NCBI GenBank assembly: GCA_964603545.1
Contig: CAZRVD010000001.1
Span: forward strand, 68,358 to 132,357
DNA: 64,000 bases
Direction: 5' to 3'
From: an uncultured Candidatus Saccharibacteria bacterium
GTDB lineage: Bacteria; Patescibacteriota; Minisyncoccia; Phycocordibacterales; DATDWN01
The notes under the pieces were generated by a model. It did not search any database, was not told where the DNA came from, and saw nothing but the letters and a program-made list of their open reading frames with translations. Positions 9,794 through 62,322 of this stretch are shown in pieces (position 1 is the stretch's first letter; each line of letters opens with the position of its first letter). The position numbers and the translations under genes are program-made.

Positions 9794-9839
9794 TTTTTCT
9801 GAATGGATAGTGTAAAGTATTCCCACTATGGTAGTACGA

Positions 9840-10080: not shown

Positions 10081-10136
10081 CTTAATTAAAATTTGTAAAT
10101 TTTTATAATTGTTCTATACTGTAATCAAACAGTAGT

Positions 10137-11048
10137 ATGGCAAACAGGCACCTTTCAAGATCAATAGTCTTACAATCGCTCTTTGAGTGGGATTTTAATT
10201 CCAAAAATTCTGAAGAGGCGACATCTATCTTTAATCGTGATGTACTAGAATTTGCCCCAGGTACAAATGATATGTCTTTCATGGAAGGTCTCATGAAGGG
10301 TGTTTTAGAGAAACAAAAAGATATAGATTTAATAATAGAAAAAGCTGCTCCTGACTGGCCAATAGATAAAATAAGTGTGATGGATAGAAATATCCTCCGA
10401 ATAGGCCTCTACGAACTACTTTTCTCTGAACGCTCACAAGTACCTCCAAAAGTTGCTATAAATGAAGCAATTGAACTTTCCAAAGCTTTTGGAGGAGAAA
10501 CTTCAAGTAAATTTGTAAACGGAGTTTTGGGCGCGGTGTACAAAGAACTTGGAGAGCCCGGGAAAGAAGAGACAAGTAAAAATAAAAATAATAAATCTTT
10601 TAGTGGAGCTCCTGTTGCCACAGAAAATCTTGGTGGTGCCGTTGTTTATGCAAAAGATGGGGAAGATATTTATCTAGCACTAGTTCACGATGTTTTTGGA
10701 CGTTGGACATTGTCCAAGGGTAAGATTGCTAACACACCAGAGACTGTTGGCGAAACATTAAAAGAGGGAACGGTAAGAGGGATAAAGGAAGAACTTGGTT
10801 TGGATGTAGAAATCAAAGAAAAGTTGGGTGATAACGAGTATATTGCATATCATCCAGAAAAGGGAAAGATAAAAAAGCACGTTACTTTCTTTTTGGCTGA
10901 GTCGCCATTTAACGATATTGTAAGAGAAGAGAAGGGGGGGCTAGATGATGCAAAATGGTTCAAACTTGCTGACATCCTTGATTTAAATTTTTATAACGAT
11001 ATACTACCTCTCGTGACCAAGGCGATTAACTTATTACTGAAGAAATAG
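10137..11048 (+). CDS. nusB: NusB antitermination factor fused to a C-terminal Nudix hydrolase domain
   Basis: N-terminal ~140 aa are NusB-like (SRSIVLQSLFEWDFN, LRIGLYELLF). C-terminal ~150 aa carry a Nudix-like box (GRWTLSKGKIANTPETVGETLKEGTVRGIKEELGL: E-x7-R-[G]-I-x-E-E-x-G-L). One continuous 303-aa ORF. Confidence 0.7.
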   Translation: MANRHLSRSIVLQSLFEWDFNSKNSEEATSIFNRDVLEFAPGTNDMSFMEGLMKGVLEKQKDIDLIIEKAAPDWPIDKISVMDRNILRIGLYELLFSERSQVPPKVAINEAIELSKAFGGETSSKFVNGVLGAVYKELGEPGKEETSKNKNNKSFSGAPVATENLGGAVVYAKDGEDIYLALVHDVFGRWTLSKGKIANTPETVGETLKEGTVRGIKEELGLDVEIKEKLGDNEYIAYHPEKGKIKKHVTFFLAESPFNDIVREEKGGLDDAKWFKLADILDLNFYNDILPLVTKAINLLLKK

Positions 11049-14802: not shown

Positions 14803-14827
14803 AGATATGACTTTTTATATACGATGA

Positions 14828-14856
14828 AGGGCGGTCGCGTATTGCACGCGCCGCCC
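14828..14856. terminator. GC-rich hairpin between convergent smc and cassette C
   Basis: GGGCGGTCGCGT-attgc-ACGCGCCGCCC. Confidence 0.45.
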
Positions 14857-14873
14857 AACAAGTCCATGAGGCG

Positions 14874-15089
14874 TCACACCTTCATATAGTGCCGAAGTGG
14901 TACCGTCGGCAATGTTCCGTCGGCATTCCGACGGGGGAGCTGGTCAGGGTGCTCACCCAGGACAACCAGTTCCTGATTGGGGTCCACGTTGATGACGTAG
15001 ACTTCTCTTGGCATCATTGCGAGCCCTCTCTGTATGACTTGTTTCACCTTGTCTCCAGGGCTGACGGTCTGTCCTGTCGCTGTTCCCAT
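14874..15089 (-). CDS. hypothetical 71-aa protein, high-GC cassette C
   Basis: ATG at 15089 preceded by AGAGGAGG. GC-rich. No recognisable family (weak AbrB/MazE-like flavour). Confidence 0.4.
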   Translation of the reverse strand: MGTATGQTVSPGDKVKQVIQRGLAMMPREVYVINVDPNQELVVLGEHPDQLPRRNADGTLPTVPLRHYMKV

Positions 15090-24304: not shown

Positions 24305-25603
24305 ATGAAAACAAAAACATTAGTATTCTCTAATATTTCTATGTCAGTCATTTTGGCTGCTCTGGTGGTTGTGGTTTATGCATTTACAGCTTCATCTGCT
24401 TTTGCAGCAACAATACCTACAGTTGAAACGACAATCAGAAACACAAGTAACACGAACGTAACAACTGCTCCTATCGGAACAGTGGTTCATGCAAACACTT
24501 CAGTTTCTTCTTCAACAGGGCCTACAGTACTTGGTACTGTTGATTTTAGTTTATATCCAAACACAACTTGTTCTGGGATAGCTTCGGTGCAAGCCGGAGT
24601 GTTACTAGCTACAGGAGTAGCAGATTCTTCTACTACAACAGTTGGAAGTAGTGGACTTTCTTACAAAGTTACATTTAACGGACAAAGTGATGTTTACGCA
24701 ACTACCACAGGACCTTGTGTATCACTTAGTCCAACTTCTTCTAACGTTAGTGTGAATTCAACACTTTCAAGTACAACAGTTGTACAAGGAACAAACGTGT
24801 ATCAAAATTCTACTCTCTCTGGAGTAACAGCTAATGCTACAGGAACAGTAGCTTATGGAATTTACACAAACAACGCATGTACTCTTGGAAAAATAGATGC
24901 AGGTAGCAAAACAGTTGCAAACGCAGTTGTGCCACAGTCAAACTCTGTTCAAATGAACACAGTTGGAACTCTTTATTTCCAAGCACAGTATTCTGGTGAC
25001 CAATTTAATACTGGAGCAAATGGCCCATGTCAGGCATTCTCTGTAATTTCTGGTTCTACTACACCTCCTCCACCAGTACCTGTTGGTTCAGGAACTCTTG
25101 CCGGGGTATCTTTTAACGACTTAAATAAAAACAAAACCAAGGATAGCGGTGAAGCGGGGATTGCTGGTTTTACAGTTAGACTTTACGGTGGAACTTTCTG
25201 GTGGAACTGGGGTAGACCTAGAGCGGTTGCCACAACTACAACGGATGTAAACGGAAACTACTCATTTACAGGACTGGCAGATGGTTTATACAGAGTTGAA
25301 GAGACAAAATTAAAAGGTTGGGCACAAATATCTCCCGACTACAAATGGGTTCTACTTCTAAATGGCAAAAGTGTAACAGAACTAAACTTCGCTAACATTT
25401 CTGTTGCAAGTGGAGCAAACGCTACAACAACAAAACCAAGAATTGATGATGATCATAAAAACAGAGGACAAGAAAAGAAACAAGAAAAAATGGAACAGAA
25501 AGAAATAAAGAAGGAAGCTCAAAAACAAAAAAAGATAAACAAACTTTTCGACAGAATAAATAAACTTAGAGGAAACGGAAACGATAACGATAGAGATGAC
25601 TAA
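24305..25603 (+). CDS. Thr/Ser-rich cell-surface protein with an SdrD-B/Cna-B-like domain
   Basis: Signal/TM N-terminus, long T/S/N-rich region, GIAGFTVRLYGG...TDVNGNYSFTGLADGLYRVEE (SdrD B-like fold), and a Lys-rich C-terminus. Confidence 0.6.
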   Translation: MKTKTLVFSNISMSVILAALVVVVYAFTASSAFAATIPTVETTIRNTSNTNVTTAPIGTVVHANTSVSSSTGPTVLGTVDFSLYPNTTCSGIASVQAGVLLATGVADSSTTTVGSSGLSYKVTFNGQSDVYATTTGPCVSLSPTSSNVSVNSTLSSTTVVQGTNVYQNSTLSGVTANATGTVAYGIYTNNACTLGKIDAGSKTVANAVVPQSNSVQMNTVGTLYFQAQYSGDQFNTGANGPCQAFSVISGSTTPPPPVPVGSGTLAGVSFNDLNKNKTKDSGEAGIAGFTVRLYGGTFWWNWGRPRAVATTTTDVNGNYSFTGLADGLYRVEETKLKGWAQISPDYKWVLLLNGKSVTELNFANISVASGANATTTKPRIDDDHKNRGQEKKQEKMEQKEIKKEAQKQKKINKLFDRINKLRGNGNDNDRDD

Positions 25604-25623
25604 AAAATAAGCAAAAACAAAAA

Positions 25624-25647
25624 AGACCCGACCAGGGTCTTTTTTGT
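25624..25647. terminator. rho-independent terminator (bidirectional)
   Basis: AAAAAGACCC-gacca-GGGTCTTTTTTG. Confidence 0.7.
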
Positions 25648-25707
25648 GTAAAAGAAAAATCGGTGGCCCCGTAGTGGGGCCCCGATCGTTGTGCGCGTGG
25701 CGGGGTG

Positions 25708-25911
25708 TTAATCCCGCCGAATCCTGGCAGAGACTTCCCGGGAAGGATCCTCCGAACTCCAGGCCCGGATGGGTGCCTGCCCAGGGAGTCGGCGGCTTGC
25801 CGACACGCTGTCGCGCGACCGTGGGAAGGGCTTCCCGGGATTGTCGCTGGGGAGTGTGACTCCTCGGCAGATTACACCGAAGATGGGACGGTTTCCGTTG
25901 ACGTCAGGCAT
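25708..25911 (-). CDS. hypothetical Pro/Arg/Ser-rich 67-aa protein in a ~65% GC, hairpin-dense segment (cassette F)
   Basis: Minus-strand ATG at 25911 preceded by AGGAG (8 nt) and a TTGACA-N17-TAAGAT promoter. The protein MPDVNGNRPIFGVICRG...SRDSVSASRRLPG is low complexity. Coding status is uncertain. Confidence 0.3.
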   Translation of the reverse strand: MPDVNGNRPIFGVICRGVTLPSDNPGKPFPRSRDSVSASRRLPGQAPIRAWSSEDPSREVSARIRRD

Positions 25912-25931
25912 GTGGTGGTCTCCTACTGTGT

Positions 25932-25960
25932 ATCTTAGCACATCTAATCTAAACTGTCAA
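25932..25960 (-). promoter_or_regulatory. promoter for 25708..25911 (minus: TTGACA-N17-TAAGAT)
   Basis: The reverse complement reads TTGACAgtttagattagatgtgcTAAGATacacagtAGGAGaccaccacATG. Confidence 0.4.
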
Positions 25961-26054
25961 GTACATTTAAATAACTTAAAAAGGACCTGGCTGGTTACAA
26001 ACCATGCAGGTCCCTCGTGTTTGTAACTTATCCACAGTTTTATCTGCATATTAA

Positions 26055-39626: not shown

Positions 39627-39704
39627 AATACAAGAACACTCTCAATTGAGAGTGTTCTTGTATTGACAAAAGGAAATAATTATGCTAGTGTCTTGCGCAG
39701 GAGG
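39627..39704 (+). promoter_or_regulatory. 32-bp perfect palindrome abutting a TTGACA promoter (cassette G)
   Basis: ACAAGAACACTCTC-AATT-GAGAGTGTTCTTGT at 39627-39658, then TTGACA(39662-67)-N17-TAGTGT, then AGGAGG at 39699-704. Confidence 0.5.
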
Positions 39705-39742
39705 GGATTTTCCCCTTGCATTAGACCAGAAAGGTTACTACG

Positions 39743-40408
39743 TTGAAAACACTCCGTATTGTCATGGCGATGACTCTGTTCTCTCTCACTTCCTTCGCTT
39801 CGGCGACGGCGCAGGACGGAGGATACAAGGTTTCGGCGATTTCTGTCGGTTCGGGGGAAACCCCGATCTCCGGCGGGATCTCCGCTTCAGTCGATCTGAC
39901 GACCGAAAGTGGCGGATTCATGCAGGTCATGGTTCAATCTGAGCAGGCTTGGTTCATGATTGGCAAGGACTGGAAGTTCTCTCGCTCCCGTTGCAGTTTC
40001 TACGGTTCAGTGGGGCATTTCCAGTCGGCGCCGTGGGTGGGTCCGTACGCGGGTTGTACCCTTGTTCTGGCCAACCTTGGTGGGCAGGAGGTTTCTATCA
40101 GTGCTCTGACTTGGCCCGGCTTTTACATCGGTTGGGAGCCGAAGAACTGGCGCACAGCCGAGGATGGGGTGGAGAATCCGGAGTCCTTGAAGGCTGGGTA
40201 TTTCTCGGTTGCCTCGCTCAATCTCGGGAGGGTTTCGGTGAGCATCGCTCATTTGAACTTTTTGGACGACAAGACCAACATCCTTCCGGGCGTCGCATAC
40301 ACCCAGAAGGTGCGTAGTGACATGGATGTCAGCGGGAGTTTCACTTGGAACTCCAACTCTGACTCCCCGATGTTCTTCGTTGGTGCATCATGGCATCCGA
40401 AGAAGTAG
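39743..40408 (+). CDS. secreted beta-rich protein (possible beta-barrel or adhesin-like), high-GC cassette G, TTG start
   Basis: Signal peptide KTLRIVMAMTLFSLTSFASATAQD, then alternating-hydrophobic beta-strand-like sequence. GC well above the backbone. Only TTG is in frame upstream, after GAAAGG. Confidence 0.45.
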   Translation: MKTLRIVMAMTLFSLTSFASATAQDGGYKVSAISVGSGETPISGGISASVDLTTESGGFMQVMVQSEQAWFMIGKDWKFSRSRCSFYGSVGHFQSAPWVGPYAGCTLVLANLGGQEVSISALTWPGFYIGWEPKNWRTAEDGVENPESLKAGYFSVASLNLGRVSVSIAHLNFLDDKTNILPGVAYTQKVRSDMDVSGSFTWNSNSDSPMFFVGASWHPKK

Positions 40409-40427
40409 AGCGACTAGCTTCGTGTAC

Positions 40428-40470
40428 GGCAGGACACCCGAGTGGGGGTCCTGCCGGCGCGGAGTTTTTT
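40428..40470 (+). terminator. rho-independent terminator of cassette G
   Basis: GGCAGGAC-acccgagtgggg-GTCCTGCC ggcgcggagTTTTTT. Confidence 0.6.
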
Positions 40471-40549
40471 GATACCTGAAATTATCCACAAGGGGTTTAA
40501 AAAATCTTCATGTTAGTATTGATACGGAAAGTCTGAGAGGGGAGGTGAC

Positions 40550-40753
40550 ATGGAGAAGTGTCCGGATTGTGAGGGTCCTGTCGGTGTGCTCATGAACTAT
40601 TATATTTGTAGGGGTCAGTGTGACGGCAAACTTTTGTTGCACACTGATCCAGATGAAAACAGGAAGGAGATGAGAAGGAGAGGGGCTCTTCTTCAAGTTA
40701 GCCACACGGATGAGGACGTAGTACACTTCGTCAGTCGAACACCCAAAGTCTAG
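40550..40753 (+). CDS. small zinc-ribbon-like protein, high-GC cassette H
   Basis: CPDCEG...CRGQC (CxxC-N16-CxxxC). RBS GGGGAGGTGA. 67 aa. Confidence 0.4.
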   Translation: MEKCPDCEGPVGVLMNYYICRGQCDGKLLLHTDPDENRKEMRRRGALLQVSHTDEDVVHFVSRTPKV

Positions 40754-40798
40754 TCTTGTCATGGTGGAGTCGTTTTGTGACTCCACCCGCAAGGCCTG

Positions 40799-40831
40799 CC
40801 CCGTAGTAGAGATACTCTACCGGGGTTTTTT
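40799..40831 (+). terminator. terminator of cassette H
   Basis: CCCCGTAGTAGAG-atac-TCTACCGGGG TTTTTTCG. Preceded by a second hairpin GGTGGAGTC-gttttgt-GACTCCACC at 40763-40787. Confidence 0.55.
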
Positions 40832-40853
40832 CGTATTAAAAAGTATATGAGAA

Positions 40854-40877
40854 GGCCCCGGGGTTGATTCCGGGGCC
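40854..40877 (-). terminator. terminator of the minus-strand coiled-coil gene
   Basis: GGCCCCGG-ggttgatt-CCGGGGCC, followed on the minus strand by TTCTCATATACTTTTTAAT. Confidence 0.5.
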
Positions 40878-40905
40878 TGGTATTCGATGTCGCAACTTGC
40901 GCTTC

Positions 40906-41542
40906 CTACTTCTTCTTCGTCAGGAGCGCACGAAGCGCGTCAGCTTTGCTCTTGCGCGCGGCCATCAGGACCGCGCGCTGTTCGGTTCCGGAGGGTCGAG
41001 GCGTGGCGACCACCACGGCGGGGTTTGCGACCTTCGCCTTGTTCGCGACTTCTCGCTGAACCCGACGTACCTGGTCGCGCTTCTTCTGCTCGACTTCGGC
41101 CTCGTCGACTGCGTTCGCCAGTGCGTTGTAGGCGTTGATGCGAAGTTCGAATGTGCCGTTCAGTTCTGCGCTGACTGCGCTGACGAGCTCAGCCTGGAGC
41201 TTCTGGAGGCGTTCGATGAGGTCCTTGTCGTAGCCCTCCTCGTCGCGCAGGCGGTTGATGATCTTGGTGAAGCGTGCCGTCTGCACCTGGTTGCCCTCGA
41301 GTGGCTTGTCGGTGACCGAGTAGCGCAGGAAGGCTCGGAGCTTGCCGTGTTCCGGTCGACACGATATCGGCCCCGATGACGATCGCCTTCTCGTTCTCGC
41401 CTTCCTCGATGGCGTCCGCCATCGCCAGGATGTAGCTGTCGATGGGGTTGCCGATCTGGAAATCGCGCGTCTTGCTCATCGCGCCCATGATTTCCGCGAC
41501 CGCTTCCTGAGACTGTTCGAAGGTCATTGTCGTCTTGGCCAT
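40906..41542 (-). pseudogene. GC-rich alpha-helical/coiled-coil protein gene interrupted by a frameshift near 41330-41360 (cassette I)
   Basis: ORF 41189..41542 is protein-like for about 62 aa (MAKTTMTFEQSQEAVAEIMGAMSKTRDFQIG...AIVIGADIVS) and then becomes P/R/G-rich junk. The +1 frame continues protein-like (EHGKLRAFLRYSVTDKPLEGNQVQTARFTKIINRL...) into ORF 40906..41286. The plus-strand ORF 40864..41379 is an antisense artefact. Confidence 0.5.
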
Positions 41543-41609
41543 ATCGGACTCCGTTCTATGAAGGTACTGCTTTTCTGAGGGCGAAATGCCGTTCAGATCT
41601 AACTAGACG

Positions 41610-41638
41610 TAGTGTAGCATGCTATGCAAAAAATGTCA
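41610..41638 (-). promoter_or_regulatory. promoter of cassette I (minus: TTGACA-N17-TACACT, with TAGCATGCTA palindrome in the spacer)
   Basis: The reverse complement reads TTGACAttttttgcatagcatgcTACACT...GGAGtccgatATG. Confidence 0.5.
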
Positions 41639-48535: not shown

Positions 48536-48652
48536 AATGAAAGAAATACACAGTTTTGATTGTAATAGGCGTTTACAGACTATTTCTTATGTGATTAGAT
48601 ATTATAGGAGGATCCTCGTTTCAATTTGAGGGTCTCTAGGGAGTGTGATTTG

Positions 48653-49003
48653 ATGCCGGCTGAGGACACACGGAAATCTGAAGCGTTGGTGGCGATTGGG
48701 CAAACCCTGGTCACCGCCCGTCGACGTTCGGGTCTGAGTTTGACTCAACTCGTTCGTTCAACCCGTAACCCGCGCCTTTCAGGTGTGGGTGACAAGTTCG
48801 TTCTCGCTGAGAAGGGGACGTTTGAGGGCAAGGAAGACCTGCTTCGGGAAATCATTCAGGCTTACCACCTGAACACTTCCGAGGACGTGGAGGTGGAACG
48901 CTGTCTGGCCGTCACGTTCCCGAAGACGGATGCCAACTCTCGCAGAAGTGGTGTTCCCGGCCATCCAAGGCCTTCACTCGGAGGGTACAGACCCTCGGCG
49001 TAG
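48653..49003 (+). CDS. XRE-family HTH regulator, high-GC cassette K1
   Basis: AIGQTLVTARRRSGLSLTQLV is a helix-turn-helix. ATG at 48653 after GGGAGTGTGA. GC-rich. The C-terminal ~30 aa are low confidence. Confidence 0.45.
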   Translation: MPAEDTRKSEALVAIGQTLVTARRRSGLSLTQLVRSTRNPRLSGVGDKFVLAEKGTFEGKEDLLREIIQAYHLNTSEDVEVERCLAVTFPKTDANSRRSGVPGHPRPSLGGYRPSA

Positions 49004-49023
49004 AAAAAGCACACAACAGGGGC

Positions 49024-49058
49024 CGGTCGCGCATGCGCGACCGAGCTCTTTTTCTTAT
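49024..49058 (+). terminator. terminator after K1
   Basis: CGGTCGCGC-at-GCGCGACCG agctcTTTTTCTT. Confidence 0.55.
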
Positions 49059-49061
49059 GGT

Positions 49062-49128
49062 CATGCGACCATTCTGGGTTGCGCACGGTTGCGGTCATAC
49101 GACCACTGCTCGCTTTCAGCGGTTGCAT
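49062..49128 (-). repeat. two adjacent TGGTCGYATGACC-core sites (family 3 copy plus 33-bp direct-repeat copy 1), minus strand
   Basis: The minus strand reads CGCTGAAAGCGAGCAGTGGTCGTATGACC-GC-AACCGTGCGCAACCCAGAATGGTCGCATGACCA. Confidence 0.6.
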
Positions 49129-49172
49129 AAAGTTTAAGTAAGTGTAGATTGATATTTAGGGAGGCAGACAGG

Positions 49173-49499
49173 ATGCTGAGCGGAGTCCAGCTGAACGAGG
49201 TAGTGAAGGATGTCAAGATATTTCGGATGAAGAGAGGACTGGAGAGAAAAGACCTGGCCTTGGAGGCTCAGGTTGGAGTTAGGTTTGTCCGAAACGTGGA
49301 AGAAGAGAGAAGGCTCAAGTGGAGGCTTCCACTAGTGCAGAAGCTTCTGCGGGTTCTGGTGGCACTGGATCTCAAACTTCATGAAGAGGCCATCAAAAAG
49401 AAAGTCAGCCAAGTTGCTCATTCACCTCGCAAGAAGAGGCGTTGCAGATTCGACCGGCGTCGTGGCGGAGTTGTTCTGAATCGGCGCTGTCGCAGGTAA
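49173..49499 (+). CDS. XRE-family HTH regulator, high-GC cassette K2
   Basis: MKRGLERKDLALEAQVGVRFVRNVEE is a helix-turn-helix. ATG at 49173 after GGGAGG. Basic Arg-rich tail. Confidence 0.5.
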   Translation: MLSGVQLNEVVKDVKIFRMKRGLERKDLALEAQVGVRFVRNVEEERRLKWRLPLVQKLLRVLVALDLKLHEEAIKKKVSQVAHSPRKKRRCRFDRRRGGVVLNRRCRR

Positions 49500-49518
49500 G
49501 TTCTTCGTTTTCGAAAAA

Positions 49519-49565
49519 GGCTCTGGGTGTGTGGCGTCACACACCCAGAGCCTTCGTTCGTTTTG
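49519..49565 (+). terminator. 15-bp perfect-stem terminator after K2
   Basis: GGCTCTGGGTGTGTG-gcg-tCACACACCCAGAGCC ttcgttcgTTTT. Confidence 0.65.
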
Positions 49566-49566
49566 G

Positions 49567-49599
49567 TCATACGACCTCTGCTCGCTTTCAGCGATTGTT
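49567..49599 (-). repeat. 33-bp direct-repeat copy 2 (31/33 identical to 49094-49126), abutting the typA stop codon
   Basis: GGTCATACGACCtCTGCTCGCTTTCAGCGaTTG versus GGTCATACGACCaCTGCTCGCTTTCAGCGgTTG. Confidence 0.6.
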
Positions 49600-51388
49600 A
49601 TTTTCTAACTGATTTCTTTCTCAATCGGACGGATTTTGGGGTTATCTCAATATACTCATCATCCGACATGATTTCCATAGCTTTTTCAATATCTAGTTTA
49701 AAAGTAGCGGCAAGGTAAACAGAACCATCTGAACTAGAAGATCGCATGTTTGTTAGTTGTTTACCTTTTGTTGGGTTTACTATTAGATCTTCACCCTTTG
49801 ATACGTTTCCAATAACCATTCCAACATAAACTTCTGTTCCGGGGTCTATGTATAGTGTTCCTCTTTGTTGTAGGTTATCTAATGCAAAAGCAAGTGCTTT
49901 ACCTTTTTCCATTGAAACCATTGAACCGTAGCTAGTACGATTTATTTCTCCAACATATTCTCTGAATTCAACAAATCGTGAAGAAAGTATTCCGAGACCT
50001 TTTGTATCTACTACAAATTGTCCACGGTATCCCAAAAGTCCTCTTGTTGGTATTTCAAACGTCAGCCGTTGTGTTCCGTGACCTTGTTTTACGTTCATTA
50101 GAACTCCGCGTCTTTCTGTAAGTCTTGAAATAACTGAGCCAGCGATTTCGTCTGGAACATCCACCGTGACTTCTTCAAAAGGTTCCATTTTTATCCCATT
50201 AACTTCTTTTATAATAACTTGTGGCTGTGAGACTTGGAGTTCAAAACCTTCTCGTCTCATATTTTCACAAAGTATTGCAATATGAAGTTCACCACGACCA
50301 TATACGGTGTAGTATTCGTTGTTGTTCCAATCCACTTTTAGTCCGACGTTTATTTCCAGCTCCTTTTCAAGTCTGTCGCGGATTTGTCTACCTGTAACAA
50401 ACTTTCCTTCCTTTCCTGCGAAAGGTGAGTCGTTAACTAAAAAGTTTAGAGAAATTGTAGGTTCATCAATGTTGATAGATGGTAGTGGTTCCGCATCTTC
50501 ACTTTGGCAAATAGTGTCTCCAATATAAACTGTTGGAAGTCCAGCAATCATCACAATGTCTCCTGCGGAAGCCTCTTTTATTTCTACTCTTTTGGTTCCT
50601 TCAAAACTGAAAAGTTTAGTAAGCTTTCCAGAAACAGTAGCTGGCGCTTTTGCATCGTGATGTTGTTTCACAAACACGGCATCATTGTTTTTAATAACAC
50701 CTTCATAAACTCTACAAACTGCAAGTCGTCCAAGGAAGTTGTCGTATGCTAAATTAAACGATTGCAGTCTTGCGGGCGCGGTTTTGTCACCTGTAGCAGG
50801 TGGGACTTCTTTTAAAATTGTTTCAAGAAGGGGGGTAAGGTCCTTGCTTTCATCTATTAGTTTCATTTTTGCAATACCTTGTCTTCCTATAGCATACACA
50901 GTTGTGAAATTAAGCTGTTCATCATTTGCTCCAAGTTCCATAAACAATTCCAAAACCATTTCGTGTACATCATCTGGTCTTGCAGCTGGTTTATCTATTT
51001 TGTTTATAATAACGATTGGTTTAAGTCCGAGTTCAAGGGATTTTTTCAAAACAAAACGAGTTTGTGGCATTGGCCCTTCTTGGGCGTCTACTAAAAGTAA
51101 AACTGTATCAATAGAACGTAGTACGCGTTCTACTTCAGAACCAAAGTCTGAGTGGCCTGGAGTATCCACAATGTTGATTTTTGTTACTTCTCGGCCTGAA
51201 TCAGCTGGGGGATAGTAAACTGATGTATTTTTTGCATATATAGTAATACCACGCTCTTGTTCTAGAGCGTTTGAGTCCATGGTTACACCTTCCTCGGTTA
51301 CCATGCCAGTCTGGCGCATTAGGGCGTCAGTTAGGGTTGTTTTGCCGTGGTCGACGTGGGCTATAATTGCTATGTTACGAATTTCCAT
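49598..51388 (-). CDS. typA: GTP-binding protein TypA/BipA
   Basis: N-terminus MEIRNIAIIAHVDHGKTTLTDALM. EF-G-like domains. 596 aa. Confidence 0.85.
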   Translation of the reverse strand: MEIRNIAIIAHVDHGKTTLTDALMRQTGMVTEEGVTMDSNALEQERGITIYAKNTSVYYPPADSGREVTKINIVDTPGHSDFGSEVERVLRSIDTVLLLVDAQEGPMPQTRFVLKKSLELGLKPIVIINKIDKPAARPDDVHEMVLELFMELGANDEQLNFTTVYAIGRQGIAKMKLIDESKDLTPLLETILKEVPPATGDKTAPARLQSFNLAYDNFLGRLAVCRVYEGVIKNNDAVFVKQHHDAKAPATVSGKLTKLFSFEGTKRVEIKEASAGDIVMIAGLPTVYIGDTICQSEDAEPLPSINIDEPTISLNFLVNDSPFAGKEGKFVTGRQIRDRLEKELEINVGLKVDWNNNEYYTVYGRGELHIAILCENMRREGFELQVSQPQVIIKEVNGIKMEPFEEVTVDVPDEIAGSVISRLTERRGVLMNVKQGHGTQRLTFEIPTRGLLGYRGQFVVDTKGLGILSSRFVEFREYVGEINRTSYGSMVSMEKGKALAFALDNLQQRGTLYIDPGTEVYVGMVIGNVSKGEDLIVNPTKGKQLTNMRSSSSDGSVYLAATFKLDIEKAMEIMSDDEYIEITPKSVRLRKKSVRK

Positions 51389-56424: not shown

Positions 56425-56841
56425 CTATTTAAAACATTTCATGCATTTACATCCAACTGGTTTCAAGTGTTCGTCAAAGTATTCCTTGCCATAGTCGTAG
56501 GTAAGTTCCTCGCCCGCTTTGATGTTTTTAATCGCAGAGATAAAGACTCTTCCTGCTGGTCCATCGGCTTCGCAGTTACCGACACATGAGTGGTTTATAA
56601 ATCGAGCCGTGTTACTTTTTATATTTCCGTTTATGGTTTTATTTTTACCCACTTCAAAAAGGTATTTACTGTTGATTGTGTACAAATCTTTTTCTTTCAT
56701 CAAAATCCCCGTGTATTCAATAATACAACTCCCTTTAGGTATTGGGCTAAGAGTAAAAAGGCCCTTTCCAGTTCCTGATTTTTTAACTTTTAATGCAAAG
56801 TTTCCTGGGGTGTATTTACTTTTTTTCATACGGTTTTTCAT
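56425..56841 (-). CDS. SET-domain protein (lysine methyltransferase-like)
   Basis: RFINHSCVGNC...ELTYDY and post-SET CKCMKC. Confidence 0.7.
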   Translation of the reverse strand: MKNRMKKSKYTPGNFALKVKKSGTGKGLFTLSPIPKGSCIIEYTGILMKEKDLYTINSKYLFEVGKNKTINGNIKSNTARFINHSCVGNCEADGPAGRVFISAIKNIKAGEELTYDYGKEYFDEHLKPVGCKCMKCFK

Positions 56842-56856
56842 TCTAACTTAAATTAT

Positions 56857-56907
56857 CCAAAAGCGAAACCCGCCGAGACTGCACAATGTCCGTGCTGTAA
56901 CGGCGGG
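56857..56907 (-). terminator. terminator of the high-GC YdjM-like gene
   Basis: CCCGCCG...CGGCGGG stem. On the minus strand it is followed by TTTCGCTTTTGG. Confidence 0.45.
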
Positions 56908-56915
56908 GGAGAGAT

Positions 56916-57452
56916 TCATAAAGACATCTCGGGGACTTTTATTGGTGCTACTCTAACCACCATCTTACTTCTAGGCCTGAATTTCCATGCGAACCACCAT
57001 AGGAGTAAGGTGTCGATCGTGCCAATCGTGATTGACCACTGTTTCGGCCAGTCACGTTTCCACCAGTTGTGAAGCTGGTGGTGGAAGTTCTCGTAGTCCT
57101 TAAGCCACTGTGACTGTGGGAGGTAGTCAATCTGGGTCCATGCCTGTACAAGGTCTGGACCGATCCCAGCAATGAAGATGAGCCACACAACCCGCCTGTA
57201 TTCTGGTTGGTTTTTGGTAAGTTTGTGACATAGCAAGAACGAAATTGCTATGTCGGTCTGGGCCCACCAGAAGTTAAAGGTGTAAGGGCTCGTGTATTCC
57301 GAACCCGAGAACAGTCCTGGCTCGAGATGTGGTATGAGGTCGAACGGCACATGTGCCAGTATGACCATGATAGGAAACCAGATCCATGATGTTTCTGGTC
57401 TGGTTTTTATGGCCACAGCTATGGCAGGTAAAATGTGCGCGCTCGGCAACAT
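56916..57452 (-). CDS. YdjM/DUF457-family membrane hydrolase, high-GC xenolog of 55109..55624 (cassette L)
   Basis: IAGIGPDLV and HVPFDLIPH correspond to the motifs of the low-GC paralog. GC clearly higher. GGAGG 9 nt upstream of the ATG. Confidence 0.55.
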   Translation of the reverse strand: MLPSAHILPAIAVAIKTRPETSWIWFPIMVILAHVPFDLIPHLEPGLFSGSEYTSPYTFNFWWAQTDIAISFLLCHKLTKNQPEYRRVVWLIFIAGIGPDLVQAWTQIDYLPQSQWLKDYENFHHQLHNWWKRDWPKQWSITIGTIDTLLLWWFAWKFRPRSKMVVRVAPIKVPEMSL

Positions 57453-57521
57453 GAGACAATCCTCCGGTTTTTTGTGAACAGTCTGAGGATTAGCTTATCT
57501 CAAACTTAAATTAATATCAAA

Positions 57522-59000
57522 TTATTTAGCCCAAATATAACTTAATGTAGATTCATACCACTTTTTATTTTCAATTCTTTTTTCCTGTTTTTCTATCCAA
57601 GGGTTCCAGTCAAATTCTTTTTTGGTGATTTCCATTTCTCCATTTGGTTTTATGATAATTAAGTCTACTTCCTCAATTAATTTTCCTTCAGCTTTGTATT
57701 TTTTGATTTGGGGCAGAACGTCAGGAGAAAGCATTGTCATCTCAAATAAATGAATTTTTGTATCTGGTCTGTCTACCAGAGTCATATTTGATTTCAGTAT
57801 AAACAATTCAACTGGGAATATTGATACTAGTGAAAACATCCAAAGAAACTGAAATGCCAGGAATTTAACGACATTTGATTTTTTATTAATAAATAGTCGT
57901 GAGATGAGCCAGAGAAAAAGTACTCCACAAAATAATACGGTATATGATGCATAAAACTTTTCGTAACTAAAACCATAATGAGTTACATAGAGTACGATTC
58001 TTTGCGCAGAGGAAACCAAAAGCAAAAGAGAGGCAAAAGAAAATACACCCAGCAGTTTTTGCCCCACAGAGACAGTTCTGCGATAGAGGAAAAGGAAAAT
58101 AGCAATATTTATAACCGAGAGGAATAGAAGTTGCCAAAAACCGCTTTTTACCAAATTTTCTGTTTCCTTGAAATCAAATGGTAATGCTCCTACCCACAGA
58201 CGATCAATTTGTATCCAAAGAAATAGGAGATAAACAACAAAAATTCCTCCCAAAACAATGCTGGTAATTACAATGTCTACGTCAGTTTTCTTTTCAGTAT
58301 TAGTTATTGTAAGAGGTCTGCCCCATGCGATTAGCGCTGTTAGTGTTCCCAGGGTCAGTAATACAAAGACAATTATTTTTGCAACAATTGAAGTAGATAA
58401 GATTTTAGTAAAAGCGTCGTAAAAAGGTTTTAATTTTTCTGCAAAAAGTGGGTCAGAGGAAGAAAGAAGAGGAACGATGACAAGGAGGGCAACCAGGAGG
58501 AGGGCTATACCAGTCAATACTCTTTTCCATACTTCACCTTTATTTTTTTCCTTATTATAAATAGTGTTCAAAATAAACTGTATAGATGGATATAGAAAAA
58601 CTAAGAAACCTAAAATGTGTTTAACTATTTTAATGGCAAAAAGACTATTCCAATCAATTTCTTTCTTTCTCTCTAGCCATGAGTAAGAATAAAAGACAGA
58701 AAAAAGTACAGGAAATAACAAGAAACTAAATGCTTTGAAAAAAGGATTCTCATATACTGCAAACGAAACAGAAAGTAAAAATAAGGGAACAATCCACACA
58801 GAGTCACTTACATCAAATTTAAGATTTTTTCTCAATCTATATACGAAAAAGGCGACAACAGAAACAAGGTAAACAGCGAAGTTAATTCCAAGAGCGAAAA
58901 TTTCTCTTGAAAAGAAGCCCCACATGAAAATGATAAAAAACAACGACAAGATAAGACTTATGCCTACTTCTTTTTTTGTTGCAAATAATTTGTTTTCCAT
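57522..59000 (-). CDS. large polytopic membrane protein (hypothetical, 12 or more TM)
   Basis: About 490 aa. The ATG at 59000 (MENKLF) is used; the track ORF extends to a TTG at 59039. It is the last gene of a three-gene minus-strand operon (59257..59790, 59049..59252, 57522..59000). Confidence 0.5.
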   Translation of the reverse strand: MENKLFATKKEVGISLILSLFFIIFMWGFFSREIFALGINFAVYLVSVVAFFVYRLRKNLKFDVSDSVWIVPLFLLSVSFAVYENPFFKAFSFLLFPVLFSVFYSYSWLERKKEIDWNSLFAIKIVKHILGFLVFLYPSIQFILNTIYNKEKNKGEVWKRVLTGIALLLVALLVIVPLLSSSDPLFAEKLKPFYDAFTKILSTSIVAKIIVFVLLTLGTLTALIAWGRPLTITNTEKKTDVDIVITSIVLGGIFVVYLLFLWIQIDRLWVGALPFDFKETENLVKSGFWQLLFLSVINIAIFLFLYRRTVSVGQKLLGVFSFASLLLLVSSAQRIVLYVTHYGFSYEKFYASYTVLFCGVLFLWLISRLFINKKSNVVKFLAFQFLWMFSLVSIFPVELFILKSNMTLVDRPDTKIHLFEMTMLSPDVLPQIKKYKAEGKLIEEVDLIIIKPNGEMEITKKEFDWNPWIEKQEKRIENKKWYESTLSYIWAK

Positions 59001-59048
59001 ATTTGTTACGGTTATGTGGCCGGCTACTCGGCTTCGCAAGGTTGTTAA

Positions 59049-59252
59049 TTATTTTTTGTATTCTAAAATGTCACCTGGCTGACAATCTAGCGCCTTACAA
59101 ATCGCCTCGAGTGTTCCAAATCTCACAGCTTTTGCTTTTCCGTTTTTCAATATAGAAAGATTGGCCATAGTTATCCCAACTTTTTCAGTAAGTTGGGTCA
59201 AACTCATTTTTCTTCTTGCTAGCATCACATCTATATTGATTATAATTGACAT
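59049..59252 (-). CDS. XRE-family HTH transcriptional regulator (YozG-like)
   Basis: LARRKMSLTQLTEKVGITMANLSILKNGKAKAVRFGTLEAICKALDCQPGDIL. Confidence 0.8.
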   Translation of the reverse strand: MSIIINIDVMLARRKMSLTQLTEKVGITMANLSILKNGKAKAVRFGTLEAICKALDCQPGDILEYKK

Positions 59253-59256
59253 GATG

Positions 59257-59790
59257 TTATACGGTTAAGTCGTTCTCAGTTTTGATATCTATGGCATTTT
59301 GTAAAAGTCTCTCAAACACCGCCGCAGCAGTAGCAATTACCGCAGACAGAAAAATCATTACAAGACCTATTACAACACCACCAGCGATGTCTTCACCCTT
59401 GCTACGCTCCACTGTATTGAAGTACACTTCTGCTCCCACAATAAAACCGATGAGAGTCATTGCGCAGTATTTAATAGTACGTAGTGTTCCCACAGAATCT
59501 AATGAGAATACTTTATTTTGTCCAATATATCCGAGTAACTTAAATGCTTGGTAGATTGCAATGAAAAAGGGAATAGATGCAATATATGCATATGCCAAGA
59601 ATGGGTCATTGAAATATATTTGAAAGAGTGTGGCATTTACATTCCTGCCCTCAAGGTGGGGTTCCCAAAGCATAAGGGCAAGAGCACCTAGGGCTACAAC
59701 TACTAGGACAAATTTTAAAAATAATGTTGATCCTTTTTTCATAGGGTAAATTTTCTTATGTAGTAATAAGGTAATACTAGCATACCTCAC
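59257..59790 (-). CDS. DUF2975-like membrane protein (typical partner of YozG-type regulators)
   Basis: Four TM helices. Lies upstream of and adjacent to the HTH gene. The start may be the internal MKKGSTLF at 59742. Confidence 0.5.
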   Translation of the reverse strand: MRYASITLLLHKKIYPMKKGSTLFLKFVLVVVALGALALMLWEPHLEGRNVNATLFQIYFNDPFLAYAYIASIPFFIAIYQAFKLLGYIGQNKVFSLDSVGTLRTIKYCAMTLIGFIVGAEVYFNTVERSKGEDIAGGVVIGLVMIFLSAVIATAAAVFERLLQNAIDIKTENDLTV

Positions 59791-59901
59791 ATCGTATTAC
59801 AATAAATATATATTGTTTATTACAAATAGTCACATGAGTCTAGTTTGTATATACAGAATCGCCCGACGCAGTCGGGCGACCTGTCGGGCGTGTAGTTTGC
59901 C

Positions 59902-60084
59902 TTATTCACGAGGGATAGCCATCTCTGGCACCTGTCCCGCGAATTCTTTCAAACACTGGTCATAGATATCAAGCCAAAATCTGGCCCAATTACCACCGTC
60001 TCGCCCTTCTCTGTAGGCGATTTCCATCTCTCTTTCTGCGATGTGCATCGCACGTTCCGCTGGGTTGTTTGTGTGGTGCCTCAT
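59902..60084 (-). CDS. hypothetical 60-aa protein, high-GC cassette M
   Basis: Minus-strand TTGACA-N16-TATAAC promoter (60100-60128), AGGAGG, ATG. Downstream hairpin CGCCCGAC-tgcg-TCGGGCG at 59861-59880. Confidence 0.4.
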   Translation of the reverse strand: MRHHTNNPAERAMHIAEREMEIAYREGRDGGNWARFWLDIYDQCLKEFAGQVPEMAIPRE

Positions 60085-60099
60085 GACAAACCTCCTGTG

Positions 60100-60128
60100 T
60101 TTGTTATAACAATTATAAATAATCTGTC
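60100..60128 (-). promoter_or_regulatory. promoter of cassette M
   Basis: The reverse complement reads TTGACAgattatttataattgtTATAACaaacacAGGAGGtttgtcATG. Confidence 0.45.
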
Positions 60129-60248
60129 AACTATCAACTCTTGCGATAGAGTAAAAAAGAAGTAATTGCGTTGCTTTCTTACTTATTTTTGATATTATCT
60201 ATTCTGTTAGAATTTGTACTTTGAAAATTAAATAAATGATTAATAAGC

Positions 60249-60320
60249 TCCGGTGTAGCTCAGTGGTAGAGCAATCGCCTGTTAAGCGATTGGTCGTAGG
60301 TTCGATCCCTACCGCCGGAG
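60249..60320 (+). tRNA. tRNA-Asn (anticodon GTT)
   Basis: Acceptor stem TCCGGTG/CGCCGGA. D arm GCTC-AGTGGTA-GAGC. Anticodon stem ATCGC/GCGAT with loop CTGTTAA. T arm GTAGG-TTCGATC-CCTAC. Discriminator G. No encoded CCA. Confidence 0.85.
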
Positions 60321-60363
60321 CTTAGTAATCATTTAAATTTTATAAATTTATTACAATTGAATT

Positions 60364-60585
60364 ATGAATAATGAAAACAGCCCACGAGTTGATTCTTTAT
60401 CTGAAGGCTTCACTACAGAATTTGAAGTTTTAGCTAGTCGTTTAAAAGAATTAGAAGTGAAAAGACGAAAACTAGAAGATGAAGGGATGAATGGTATTCC
60501 GAAAGAAGAGGATGTTTCAGAAGCAGCTAGTATTTCCTTAGAAATGCTTGATATTAAAGAAGAATTGAAAAAACTTCAAAACTAG
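60364..60585 (+). CDS. small acidic coiled-coil protein (hypothetical) between the tRNA and its 3'-end repeat
   Basis: 73 aa, low GC, weak RBS. Confidence 0.25.
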   Translation: MNNENSPRVDSLSEGFTTEFEVLASRLKELEVKRRKLEDEGMNGIPKEEDVSEAASISLEMLDIKEELKKLQN

Positions 60586-60660
60586 GTAGAAATTGATACC
60601 AGACATCAATCTCACTTTAATTTTATCTATACAGACAAAATTAAAAAAGATCACTCTATG

Positions 60661-60683
60661 CCGCCGGAGCTTAGTAATCATTT
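60661..60683 (+). repeat. 23-bp exact direct repeat of the tRNA-Asn 3' end plus its downstream flank (att-like)
   Basis: CCGCCGGAGCTTAGTAATCATTT at 60312-60334 and again at 60661-60683. Confidence 0.75.
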
Positions 60684-60691
60684 TTTATAAA

Positions 60692-60725
60692 TTGACACAA
60701 ATGTCATTTTAATAGATAATCCTTC
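60692..60725 (+). promoter_or_regulatory. promoter of cassette N (TTGACA with overlapping TGACA-caaa-TGTCA palindrome)
   Basis: TTGACAcaaatgtcattttaaTAGATAAT, then AAAGG, then ATG at 60759. Confidence 0.45.
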
Positions 60726-60758
60726 TCGGAACTTCTTCCAAGAAAGGTTGGGTTAGCT

Positions 60759-61523
60759 ATGCTTTTGAGAAAAGGAGACCACTCTGTATGGGCAACGTCT
60801 GAAGGCGGGTCCATACTCTCGTGGCAATGGCGAGAGCACAACATTCTCGGACCAGCACGTTTTGTGCGTGTAGATGGAGAACTTAAACTTCGCGGTGAGA
60901 CGCACTGGTGTTACCCGAACTTTGGGTCTGTGCCAGAGGGTGCCAATTTCAATTACCCCAAACATGGGCACCTTCGAAACGTCGTTCTTGACATTGAACG
61001 ACTTTACGACGATTCTGCACAGTTCTATCTGCCATCCAATCGTACCGGCAACTCCACCGAAGTCAGGGTTGACTTGGGAGTTCATAATTGGGGGGTTAGC
61101 ACATGGCTTTCTGCCATCAATCGAGGCGATGAGCGTGTGCCAATGTTGGTTGGGAGTCACCCCTACTTTGTAGTTCCGGAAGATGGCCTTGAAGTCTGGG
61201 TGAACGGCAAGTTGGAAGCTGAGGTTGTACGCCTAGGAGCTGGCCTATTGCAATCGGCAGGAGTTTTCTCGAAGGCGCGAATCCTGCCTCGATTTGGTGG
61301 TAGGGTCGCGGTAAACCTCAAGGGTCTCGGAGAGGTGCATCTCGGTTTGCACGATCACTGTTCACACATTGTCATTTGGTCTGATTGCCGGGCGGAGTAC
61401 ATTTGTGTTGAACCCGTATTTGGTGAACCCGGGGAATTTGGTACCGAGGAGGGAAATTGGCTTAGCAAGAATGAGTCCACTTTCTGCCAGGTGGACTTCA
61501 ACTTCAAACCGCGCTCGGTATAA
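60759..61523 (+). CDS. aldose 1-epimerase-family protein (glucose-6-phosphate 1-epimerase/YeaD-like), high-GC cassette N
   Basis: GGSILSWQ, HPYF and ICVEP motifs. GC-rich. Confidence 0.55.
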   Translation: MLLRKGDHSVWATSEGGSILSWQWREHNILGPARFVRVDGELKLRGETHWCYPNFGSVPEGANFNYPKHGHLRNVVLDIERLYDDSAQFYLPSNRTGNSTEVRVDLGVHNWGVSTWLSAINRGDERVPMLVGSHPYFVVPEDGLEVWVNGKLEAEVVRLGAGLLQSAGVFSKARILPRFGGRVAVNLKGLGEVHLGLHDHCSHIVIWSDCRAEYICVEPVFGEPGEFGTEEGNWLSKNESTFCQVDFNFKPRSV

Positions 61524-61644
61524 CCGCGTGCGATCAAGAAAGGATGGGCTCGCTTTAGCTACGGCTAAGGGCGGGCCCGTTTCATTTAAGTTAATTATTT
61601 GGTATATTAATAATTAGAAATTTCAGTTCATCTGGAGGTCTTAC

Positions 61645-61845
61645 ATGGGTAATCGGGGAACTACTCCTTCGTGGGATGATGAGCAAATCGCATTGTACGG
61701 CCTTTTTGGACACATGGACAATGTGAGAAGAGGTTACAGGATGAGGGAAGTCTCTCGTAAGAAAGCGCGACGCCGGAATATAAAGGAGGATCTCAAGCGT
61801 CGGCTTGACTCCAAAAGAGAAGAAAGGAGTCGTTCAAAGAAGTGA
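61645..61845 (+). CDS. hypothetical 66-aa basic protein, high-GC cassette O
   Basis: TTTCAT-N17-TATATT promoter, GGAGG RBS, ATG at 61645. Arg/Lys-rich C-terminus. Confidence 0.35.
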   Translation: MGNRGTTPSWDDEQIALYGLFGHMDNVRRGYRMREVSRKKARRRNIKEDLKRRLDSKREERSRSKK

Positions 61846-61875
61846 ATCTGCCGAACTCTACACTAGTTCTACAGT

Positions 61876-61918
61876 CCGCCCCGAAGGCCAAACGCTTTTG
61901 CGGGCGGCTTTCGTTTTG
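61876..61918 (+). terminator. hairpin terminator after cassette O
   Basis: CCGCCCCG...CGGGCGG, then cTTTCGTTTTG. Confidence 0.4.
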
Positions 61919-61944
61919 TATTTAGGTGGGTGTATAATGTAGGT

Positions 61945-62322
61945 ATGAATATTAAAATACGATCAATAAACTTTGATTTAACAGATGCGATAGAGGAATA
62001 TGTAAATAAAAAAGCATCTTCTCTTGAGAAGTTTTTGCAAAACAAAGAGGGTGCGCTCTGTGAAGTGGAAATAGGTAGAACAACCAAACATCACAATTCT
62101 GGTGATATTTTTAAGGCAGAAATCAATATTATGGTACCCGGTAGCGGACAGGTTTATGCAGTAGCAGAAGAACCAGAGCTTTACACTGCAATAGATATTG
62201 TTCGGGATGAAGCAGAAAGGGTAATAGTCAGTCAAAAAAGTAAAAGAGACACTCTTTTTAGAAGAGGGGCATCACAAATAAAAAATTTAATAAAGAGGAT
62301 TAACGGTGGGAGCAAAAATTAA
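61945..62322 (+). CDS. hpf: ribosome hibernation-promoting factor (RaiA/YfiA family)
   Basis: MNIKIRSINFDLTDAIEEYV...AEINIMVPG matches the HPF/sigma-54 modulation protein fold. Extended -10 TGTATAAT at 61931-61938. Confidence 0.8.
   Translation: MNIKIRSINFDLTDAIEEYVNKKASSLEKFLQNKEGALCEVEIGRTTKHHNSGDIFKAEINIMVPGSGQVYAVAEEPELYTAIDIVRDEAERVIVSQKSKRDTLFRRGASQIKNLIKRINGGSKN

Follow-up and report, generated by a model that had tools for sequence, protein, structure and literature searches.

A duplicated tRNA-Asn 3' end in a Paceibacteria genome: a probable attachment-site scar at a recurrent landing site

In staphylococci, elements of the staphylococcal cassette chromosome (SCC) and pseudo-SCC type lie at the 3' end of rlmH (orfX), where enzymes of the large serine recombinase (LSR) family leave direct repeats of ~15-20 bp that restore the end of the gene. 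These elements form tandem arrays, and recombinase-less cassettes that carry the same repeats are presumably moved in trans. A second kind of relic, the cis-mobilisable element (CIME), is flanked by the attachment (att) sites attL and attR, is without recombination genes, is derived by deletion from an integrative and conjugative element (ICE) and could be moved by the enzyme of a related element. For islands at tRNA genes, tandem accretion that leaves partial tRNAs behind is the established model (bioRxiv 10.1101/2020.12.28.424599; PMC7192596). The locus described here is the tRNA-Asn(GTT) gene in a 64-kb stretch of contig CAZRVD010000001.1 (assembly GCA_964603545.1), referred to throughout as the window, together with a second copy of the 3' end of this gene a short distance downstream. 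The two copies are probably the attL and attR of a small integrated segment of 349 bp, whose recombinase most likely belonged to a family of LSRs that abut tRNA-Asn in related genomes. The features discussed are collected in Table 1, in which L numbers denote the related loci and contigs compared.

tRNA-Asn(GTT) is the sole tRNA gene of the window. An earlier note on this DNA had reported that 23 bp at its 3' end recur downstream, and the repeat is indeed present where it was claimed: the 23-mer CCGCCGGAGCTTAGTAATCATTT occurs as two exact copies, here called B (at the tRNA) and C, with a start-to-start spacing of 349. Chance matches to the 23-mer numbered 0 in 100 dinucleotide-preserving shuffles (0 expected) and the blastn E value is 1.4e-7. 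The direct repeat extends imperfectly in that TTTATAAATT follows both copies (60339-60348 and 60684-60693), its offset between the two corresponding to a 4-nt insertion, AAAT, behind copy B; the block of identity is about 37 bp when this gap is included and 23 bp without it. A third copy of the 23-mer, inverted and with 3 mismatches, abuts the 5' end of tRNA-Asn at 60234-60256, and when the tRNA and its flanks were compared with the window by blastn-short the 23-mer and this inverted leader copy were the only matches. Logan contig L002 (SRR8863434), from an independent sample, is identical over 3459 bp including both repeat copies, and the arrangement is present in four contigs from several sources, so that it is not an assembly artefact. 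The segment between the repeats is as tiny as had been noted and its only open reading frame (ORF), of 73 aa, has no Pfam match; no integrase is found inside the 349 bp.

The sequence that precedes copy C, termed arm A, is shared with the junctions of other genomes. Its motif AAAATTAAAAAAGATCAC stands directly 5' of copy C in the window. In L008, L009, L011, L057 and L093 it is found directly 5' of a downstream duplicate of the respective host's tRNA-Asn 3' end, and a shorter version, AAGATCAC, occupies the same junction position in L017. Arm A was aligned with L008, L009, L011 and L057, L093 being included through the alignment of a unit designated unit A, and the profile of this unit (nhmmer) matches positions 60618-60670 of the window with E = 7e-5. 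The copied core follows the acceptor sequence of each host (for example CCCGCGGAGC in L057), and the similarity of the relatives' copies to the tRNA starts in the T-loop. A second family of arms, arm B (...CAGAACAGGTGTAC.GAAACTGTAAGTTTCGAT), precedes tRNA-end copies in L008, L009, L012, L027 and L036. Measured from the tRNA 3' end, copies are found at +177, +338 and +1023 in L008, at +166 and +928 in L009, at +161 and +346 in L012 and at +3911 in L017, with spacings in these arrays of between 160 bp and 3.9 kb. Some of the segments between copies consist of a promoter, one ORF and a terminator (for example in L008, where the ORF is GC-rich, and in L009, where it has 114 aa) and other units, of about 165 bp, are 'empty'. 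In L008 a new trailer lies behind the intact tRNA and the two distal copies retain ancestral trailers, ATAGTAATCATTA and TTAGAAATCATTT, of a type also found behind tRNA-Asn in L013, L014, L090 and the window. This arrangement, with the new trailer at the tRNA and the old trailer outward, is the one predicted by successive integration.

Judged from these sequence comparisons, copy C with its preceding arm A is an attR-type junction, and the interval 60335-60683 is best read as element DNA consisting of a promoter and the 73-aa ORF, a degenerate arm A and copy C. The earlier view of the repeat as an att-type duplication is thereby strengthened, copy C ending a conserved arm that is seen at the equivalent junctions of relatives, and the contrary case, in which relatives would share both the duplication and the insert, was seen in no relative examined. 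Two further resemblances were discarded: the resemblance of window position 61860 to L009 (ACACTAGTTCT, 11 nt) is a match at chance level, and a putative partial tRNA at L020 19184 is an 11-mer and likewise near chance.

The 73-aa ORF links the segment to an LSR. It has a single homologue among 5.8 billion proteins, in L096, which is of the same length and shows 77% identity at the amino acid and 86.5% at the nucleotide level. The two differ at 9 synonymous and 17 non-synonymous codons; frame and length are kept and the constraint is weak. L014 has an acidic ORF in the corresponding position, and its homology to the 73-aa ORF was rejected (BLASTP E = 6.8). In L096 a partial tRNA-Asn 3' end (CTACCGCCGGAGC) is followed by the homologue of the 73-aa ORF (orf73), a GC-rich PurC/PurE gene and then an LSR of 498 aa, which lies 1.7 kb from the orf73 homologue. 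This LSR has Resolvase, Recombinase and Zn-ribbon domains. With it as query, LSR genes with the Pfam domains Resolvase, Recombinase and Zn_ribbon_recom were found directly downstream of and convergent with tRNA-Asn in nine loci (L010, where the gene is fragmented, L020, L046, L049, L054, L067, L073, L077 and L080). All eight intact ORFs continue antisense into the tRNA 3' end and share one register there, with tails of the form ...LRRQ(G/D)SNL and ...WLRR, and the tRNA-proximal fragment in L010 ends in this register too (...WLRG). As the ORFs end in frame inside the antisense tRNA, it is the integrated state that defines the C-terminus of the enzyme, and this suggests that the tRNA 3' segment is part of the element's attachment site, located at the end of the LSR gene.

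LSR C-terminal remnants abut tRNA-Asn in two more loci, L017 (E = 2e-20) and L091 (E = 3e-19), as detected by tblastn. Reading outward from the tRNA, L017 has the LSR remnant first, next 3.6 kb with small accessory genes, and then an older tRNA end that is decayed and bears a TAAGTAATTATTA trailer; the island ends in AAGATCAC and a 12-nt exact repeat of the tRNA end; this order of parts indicates that a distal junction of the arm A type belongs to an LSR-type island. Similar remnants had been suspected by eye beside unit A in L009, L011 and L057, for which tblastn gave no confirmation at E <= 1, and these were not used. Other cargo of the LSR elements includes a Prim-Pol/helicase (L067) and ParB, a second LSR and a tyrosine recombinase (L046, L080). 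In L067 a LOOT RNA (Rfam RF03000, 83.3 bits; 14783-14904, minus strand) is located about 6.5 kb downstream of tRNA-Asn, with the LSR and Prim-Pol genes in between; the far end of that element was not found.

The earlier note had ascribed the scar to a tyrosine integrase. Such an enzyme would have crossed over in the T-loop or acceptor region and its gene would since have been lost or would lie elsewhere in the genome, and of the alternatives this is the one that survives best, albeit as an unlikely one. A block of 23 bp (about 37 bp gapped) shared with a tRNA 3' end is the usual signature of these enzymes (bioRxiv 10.1101/2020.12.28.424599), the copies in relatives begin in the T-loop, which is a known sublocation for them, and a tyrosine recombinase gene (PF00589, E = 4.5e-16) is present in the tRNA-Asn-linked elements of L046 and L080. 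These are however the only two loci in which it was found, in each case beside an LSR, whereas the gene that abuts the tRNA is an LSR in the nine loci listed above and, as a remnant, in two others. No tyrosine integrase occurs in any of the repeat-bearing arrays, and indeed no recombinase was found in the arrays of relatives. The attribution to a tyrosine integrase made in the earlier note is not supported. A regular expression for box II of tyrosine recombinases had returned mostly out-of-frame artefacts and one genuine Xer-like protein (L029), and had missed the real tyrosine recombinase of L046; it constitutes weak negative evidence and phmmer was therefore added.

If the segment was integrated by an LSR of the family that abuts tRNA-Asn, a site-specific recombinase would have joined a circular element to the T-loop or 3' end of the tRNA gene, with a crossover in or near the T-loop, the point at which the similarity between arm and tRNA starts in relatives. 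The element would have brought its own tRNA 3' end and trailer, such that the tRNA remained intact (copy B), and the original 3' end and trailer would have been pushed to the far side (copy C), behind the distal arm A of the element. The circle junction of the 349-bp form would read arm A, core, trailer, AAATTTTATAAATTTATT. What is left today would be the promoter, the 73-aa ORF and about 100 nt of arm, either as the remnant of a larger element from which recombinase and cargo were deleted or as a recombinase-less mini-element served in trans. In this scheme we infer the recombination event itself, the position of the crossover and the identity of the enzyme.

Several points weigh against this reading. 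The 349-bp segment is known only in its occupied form, no strain variant that lacks it being available. No recombinase was detected in the 64-kb window by phmmer with an Xer-like tyrosine recombinase, the element tyrosine recombinase, two LSRs and Prim-Pol as queries, and tblastn of the window with eight serine recombinases gave no match; the earlier statement that there is no integrase in the window therefore holds as far as these queries reach. The loci with LSR ORFs show no direct tRNA-end repeat in the flanks examined (8-9 kb mostly, less in three), so that the link between LSR and repeat rests on L017 and L096. No genuine free attP carrying the att sequence was found in four scans of viral contigs (whose queries were the exact 23-mer, arms A and B and a degenerate 20-mer) and one metagenome scan (with the 20-mer), the matches returned being chance ones in coding DNA with no tRNA nearby. 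In the window itself the tRNA identity begins only 9 nt from the tRNA end, and the arm is degenerate (GATCACtCTAtg vs GATCACCCTA). Classical serine integrases, whose quasi-palindromic attB and attP sites measure about 40-50 bp, leave only a 2-bp overlap, and an identity of 23 bp is what tyrosine integrases, or serine recombinases of the Ccr type, more typically produce. Finally, conservation of the 14-nt trailer may have another cause, a helix that it forms with the leader of the tRNA.

In this helix the leader AAATGATTAATAAGC pairs with the trailer GCTTAGTAATCATTT (60320-60335), lengthening the acceptor stem by 15 bp to a whole stem of about 22 bp with one conserved internal mismatch. The predicted minimum free energy is -47.8 kcal/mol (z = -8.1), the leader-trailer pairing extends over 21 nt at 95% complementarity, and copy C is also able to pair with the leader (23 nt, 91%). 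The same leader and trailer are found in L014 (about 12634-12620 and 11976-11962, minus strand), and L007 (11625-11745, minus strand) has the same architecture in a different sequence, with the mismatch at the same position and z = -4.4; compared by eye with the window, two of its pairs are changed on both sides, three are changed to wobble pairs and one is broken. On the model suggested by this fold the helix may be the processing stem of a tRNA that is co-transcribed with downstream genes. It may also explain why the block of identity reaches 14 nt past the tRNA, since replacement of the trailer by an insertion would disrupt the pairing.

The helix is also the basis of a second alternative, in which copy C was kept as, or arose by local duplication or gene conversion to become, an RNA processing or 3'-end signal of a tRNA-orf73 co-transcript. 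The stability of the helix, its compensatory and wobble-compatible changes in L007, the retention of leader and trailer in L014, the complementarity of copy C to the leader and the finding of no terminator between tRNA, orf73 and copy C would all accord with such a role. Arm A before copy C is however common to the junctions of genomes that lack the helix (L008, L009 and L093), in which the copied core tracks the host tRNA and the trailer does not, and the helix-bearing L014 and L090 are without a second copy. A local duplication, moreover, would bring neither arm A nor an ORF that is elsewhere linked to an LSR, and an origin of copy C as an RNA signal is accordingly very unlikely. A third alternative, a case raised in the earlier note, would make copy C what is left of a second, tandem tRNA-Asn gene after decay. 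A weak resemblance of GATCACTCTATG, just upstream of copy C, to the T-loop/T-stem GATCCCTAC speaks for it, but it is highly improbable: nothing upstream of 60649 is tRNA-like, the sequence there is instead arm A, which other genomes have conserved in this form, the duplication takes in the trailer too, and the two copies are separated by an unrelated ORF.

The suggestion that tRNA-Asn is a recurrent landing site is supported by the tandem arrays and the cassette-free sites of relatives, and the genes from p178 to O have no counterparts in about 90 related loci. The HPF, N and 73-aa proteins of the window are 100% identical to those of Parcubacteria group bacterium Gr01-1014_46, and its Fmt (methionyl-tRNA formyltransferase) reaches at most 66% identity with GTDB species representatives, the matches all being Patescibacteria/Paceibacteria. 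The position of tRNA-Asn beside fmt/HPF is a synteny conserved clade-wide. In the closest relative as judged by HPF, Parcubacteria bacterium C7867-003 (L087, 88% identity; interval compared, 9362-10378), 234 bp separate SET from HPF and comprise the tRNA, a promoter and a terminator with no cassettes, and in L090, with an HPF that is 80% identical and the tRNA orientation of the window, the tRNA, TTAGTAATCATTA and a terminator are followed directly by HPF. The SET-to-HPF interval of the window measures 5.1 kb. Its p178, DUF4153, HTH, DUF2975, M and O genes have no homologue in the related loci, although the bordering SET and YdjM-like genes do; together with the cassette-free relatives this places the tRNA inside a lineage-specific variable block. 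The promoter block TTATTTTTGATATTATCT is kept upstream of tRNA-Asn in L006, L014, L012 and L087; the promoter of the window's tRNA-Asn was missed by the promoter scan because of its weak -35 element.

Further observations were made at the tRNA-Asn locus. The relative orientation of SET and HPF is constant, and tRNA-Asn with its promoter points toward SET in L087 and L008 and toward HPF in the window (compared over 56425-62322), L014, L009, L090 and L091; this changing orientation suggests repeated inversion or re-insertion at a hot spot. The anticodon loop of tRNA-Asn (CCTGT|TAAGCG) is split by a group I intron in many relatives, among them L014, L090, L011, L053, L010 and L016, and the intron of L014 (12579-12016, minus strand; Rfam Intron_gpI, 65.4 bits) encodes an ORF for an HNH endonuclease. 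Contigs L004, L006 and L050 end, and L002 and L093 start, at or inside tRNA-Asn. These breaks were not used as proof of population heterogeneity, as identical tRNAs in co-assembled relatives could account for them equally well.

The 'empty' units mentioned above are structured, and units of like build (~150-165 nt) lie directly behind tRNA-Asn, -Gln, -Lys and -Leu in Paceibacteria. First in each come a terminator and a hairpin. An inverted copy of the cognate T-loop/T-stem is next, then a long hairpin, then GAAAGGTGTAC and one more hairpin, which has CTGTAAG as its loop; most units end in a direct copy of the cognate tRNA 3' end (seen for Gln and Leu, not for Lys). The CTGTAAG-loop hairpin shows strong covariation across 13 sequences: three of its five pairs occur as four pair types each and a fourth as two, and the fifth pair is invariant but for the single non-canonical cell. 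The stems of the other two hairpins covary as well. The motif also has a free-standing relative (GGTGAGAAG, hairpin, CGCAAGACCTTGA, hairpin, GCGAAAGGTGTAC, CTGTAAG hairpin), which is found away from tRNA 3' ends and may represent a small RNA not yet described; the L067 example is joined to a tRNA-Asn 5' fragment just upstream of the intact gene. Rfam returned nothing for the units and the free-standing motif beyond tRNA, the group I intron and the one LOOT RNA, and for want of an Rfam match an early assignment of the GAAAGGTGTAC...CTGTAAG motif to RNase P RNA was abandoned. It is conceivable, if quite unlikely, that arm A of the window is a worn member of this wider undescribed class and that the units, together with the small cassettes with promoters that lie between them, make up an integron-like cassette system behind tRNAs. 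The unit would then be a new folded recombination site, or a guide-like RNA that steers a recombinase to the tRNA T-arm; alternatively, the units may be decayed attP arms.

The GC-rich ORFs M, N and O lie at the coordinates given for them in the earlier note, in which they were taken as cassettes surrounding the tRNA. Blastn-short found no att-like or tRNA fragments bordering these three or any other GC-rich ORF of the window. ORF N scores 24.3 bits against Pfam Aldose_epim, below the cut-off of 27, and its homologues, beyond the identical protein of Gr01-1014_46, are <=49% identical. One of them, in L093, lies in the equivalent island between tRNA-Asn and HPF and past the unit-A copy, from which N and O look like older island content and not part of this insertion. 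The promoter sequence of ORF N beyond copy C is TTTATAAATTGACA. ORF N is bracketed by a 20-nt direct repeat with 17/20 positions matching, CAAGAAAGGTTGGGTTAGCT (60739-60758) and CAAGAAAGGATGGGCTCGCT (61535-61554), the first copy ending at the start codon of N and the second beginning 11 nt after its stop codon; the repeat is near chance in an all-against-all search and its placement is suggestive. Other GC-rich islands of the window (GC 0.50-0.56 vs 0.385 overall) include 39688-41616, 48596-49606, 25598-25966 and 56856-57458, and there are more. A recurring promoter, TTAGGTG(G)GTGTATAATGTAGGTATG, is present at 61915-61947 in the window, at about 11925-11898 (minus strand) in L014 and at 12170-12200 in L008. 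Start codons 6-7 nt behind the -10 box imply leaderless mRNAs for HPF and some cassette ORFs.

Table 1. Positions of the features discussed, in window coordinates unless an L number is given
Feature	Position	Strand	Description	Basis
tRNA-Asn (GTT)	60249-60321	+	intact, without intron, bears the attL side	ARAGORN and Rfam (72.2 bits)
Probable tRNA-Asn promoter	60171-60198	+	-35 TTGCTT (60171-60176), extended -10 TGATATTAT (60190-60198)	read from sequence
Leader strand of helix	60234-60248	+	AAATGATTAATAAGC, inverted copy of the trailer	
Repeat copy B	60312-60334	+	tRNA C64-G72 (9 nt), then C, then the 13-nt trailer TTAGTAATCATTT	
Putative cargo module	60339-60613	+	promoter-like TTTATAAATTTATTACAATTG, 73-aa acidic ORF (60364-60585), about 28 nt past the stop	block homologous to L096
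Arm A, putative degenerate distal element arm	60586-60660	+	conserved part ...TTTAATTTTA..GACAAAATTAAAAAAGATCACtCTAtg	nhmmer, alignment, motif scan
Repeat copy C	60661-60683	+	putative displaced tRNA-Asn 3' end and original trailer, attR side	
ORF N promoter	60692-60720	+	strong sigma-70-type: TTGACA, 17-nt spacer, GATAAT; 11/12 matches; starts 9 nt past copy C	
ORF M	59902-60084	-	60 aa, GC-rich, lies 5' of the tRNA	
ORF N	60759-61523	+	254 aa, aldose-epimerase-like, GC-rich	
ORF O	61645-61845	+	66 aa, basic, GC-rich, own terminator hairpin behind	
LSR ORFs	L067 8287-9975; L020 11581-13263; also L073, L080, L077, L049, L046, L054	-		
Units behind tRNA-Asn	L008 11739-12090; L009 13830-13663 (minus); L012 11528-11690; L027 12000-12164; L036 13073-13239			
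Units behind other tRNAs	L070 2935-2775 (minus); L031 20450-20620 and 20095-19951 (minus)		Gln (L070); Lys and Leu (L031)	
Free-standing motif	L007 about 7330-7200 (minus); L012 about 5460-5560; L014 about 10870-10980; L092 about 20-120; L067 about 8070-8180; L081; L036 about 12860-12950			

Bacteria of the Candidate Phyla Radiation (CPR) have tiny genomes in which gene gain is poorly documented. The comparison made here shows that throughout a clade of Paceibacteria a single tRNA gene is the common docking site, and that this site holds LSR elements, their remnants and strings of very small cassettes, offering a concrete route of gene gain, which may extend to the nearby GC-rich accessory genes. 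It also supplies recombinases with candidate attachment sites in a conserved tRNA, pairs that are potential tools for site-specific integration. The window's own feature is a modest relic, with one small ORF between two att junctions; relics of this kind are known, and this one adds a further case from a tiny groundwater bacterium, an unusual host in whose lineage they are little documented.

Set beside integron cassettes, the units share a small size, a single ORF, an arrangement in arrays at one site and a structured, site-like end, but there is no IntI, attI or attC consensus here, the units end in a tRNA 3' end and not in GTTRRRY, and they carry their own promoters and terminators. The predicted leader-trailer helix is similar to the RNase III stems that flank rRNA in being a long continuous helix (~22 bp) of 5' and 3' flanks, and differs from them in that it encloses a single tRNA. 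A CIME would have left comparable traces, although here no ICE or conjugation genes are in sight and the segment measures hundreds of bases as opposed to kilobases. Islander/TIGER islands and the tycheposons of Prochlorococcus have, as seen here, an intact tRNA at one end and partial 3' ends downstream, newer arrivals that displace older ones outward, degenerate elements without an integrase and small cargo in a streamlined genome (bioRxiv 10.1101/2020.12.28.424599; PMC7192596). The hallmark of tycheposons is nevertheless a tyrosine recombinase, where the relatives' site has an LSR; the lower limit used for elements of that type is 2 kb, where the units here span 160-700 bp; and the host is a Paceibacteria (CPR) bacterium and not Prochlorococcus. 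The identity block of 12-23 bp exceeds what is usual for phage serine integrases. SCC differs from the present case in its target, rlmH as opposed to a tRNA, and in that here the integrated LSR gene reads antisense into the tRNA. With its repeats of 15-20 bp, its arrays and its recombinase-less cassettes, SCC would nonetheless seem a closer analogy to the tRNA-Asn locus than are the classical serine integrases.

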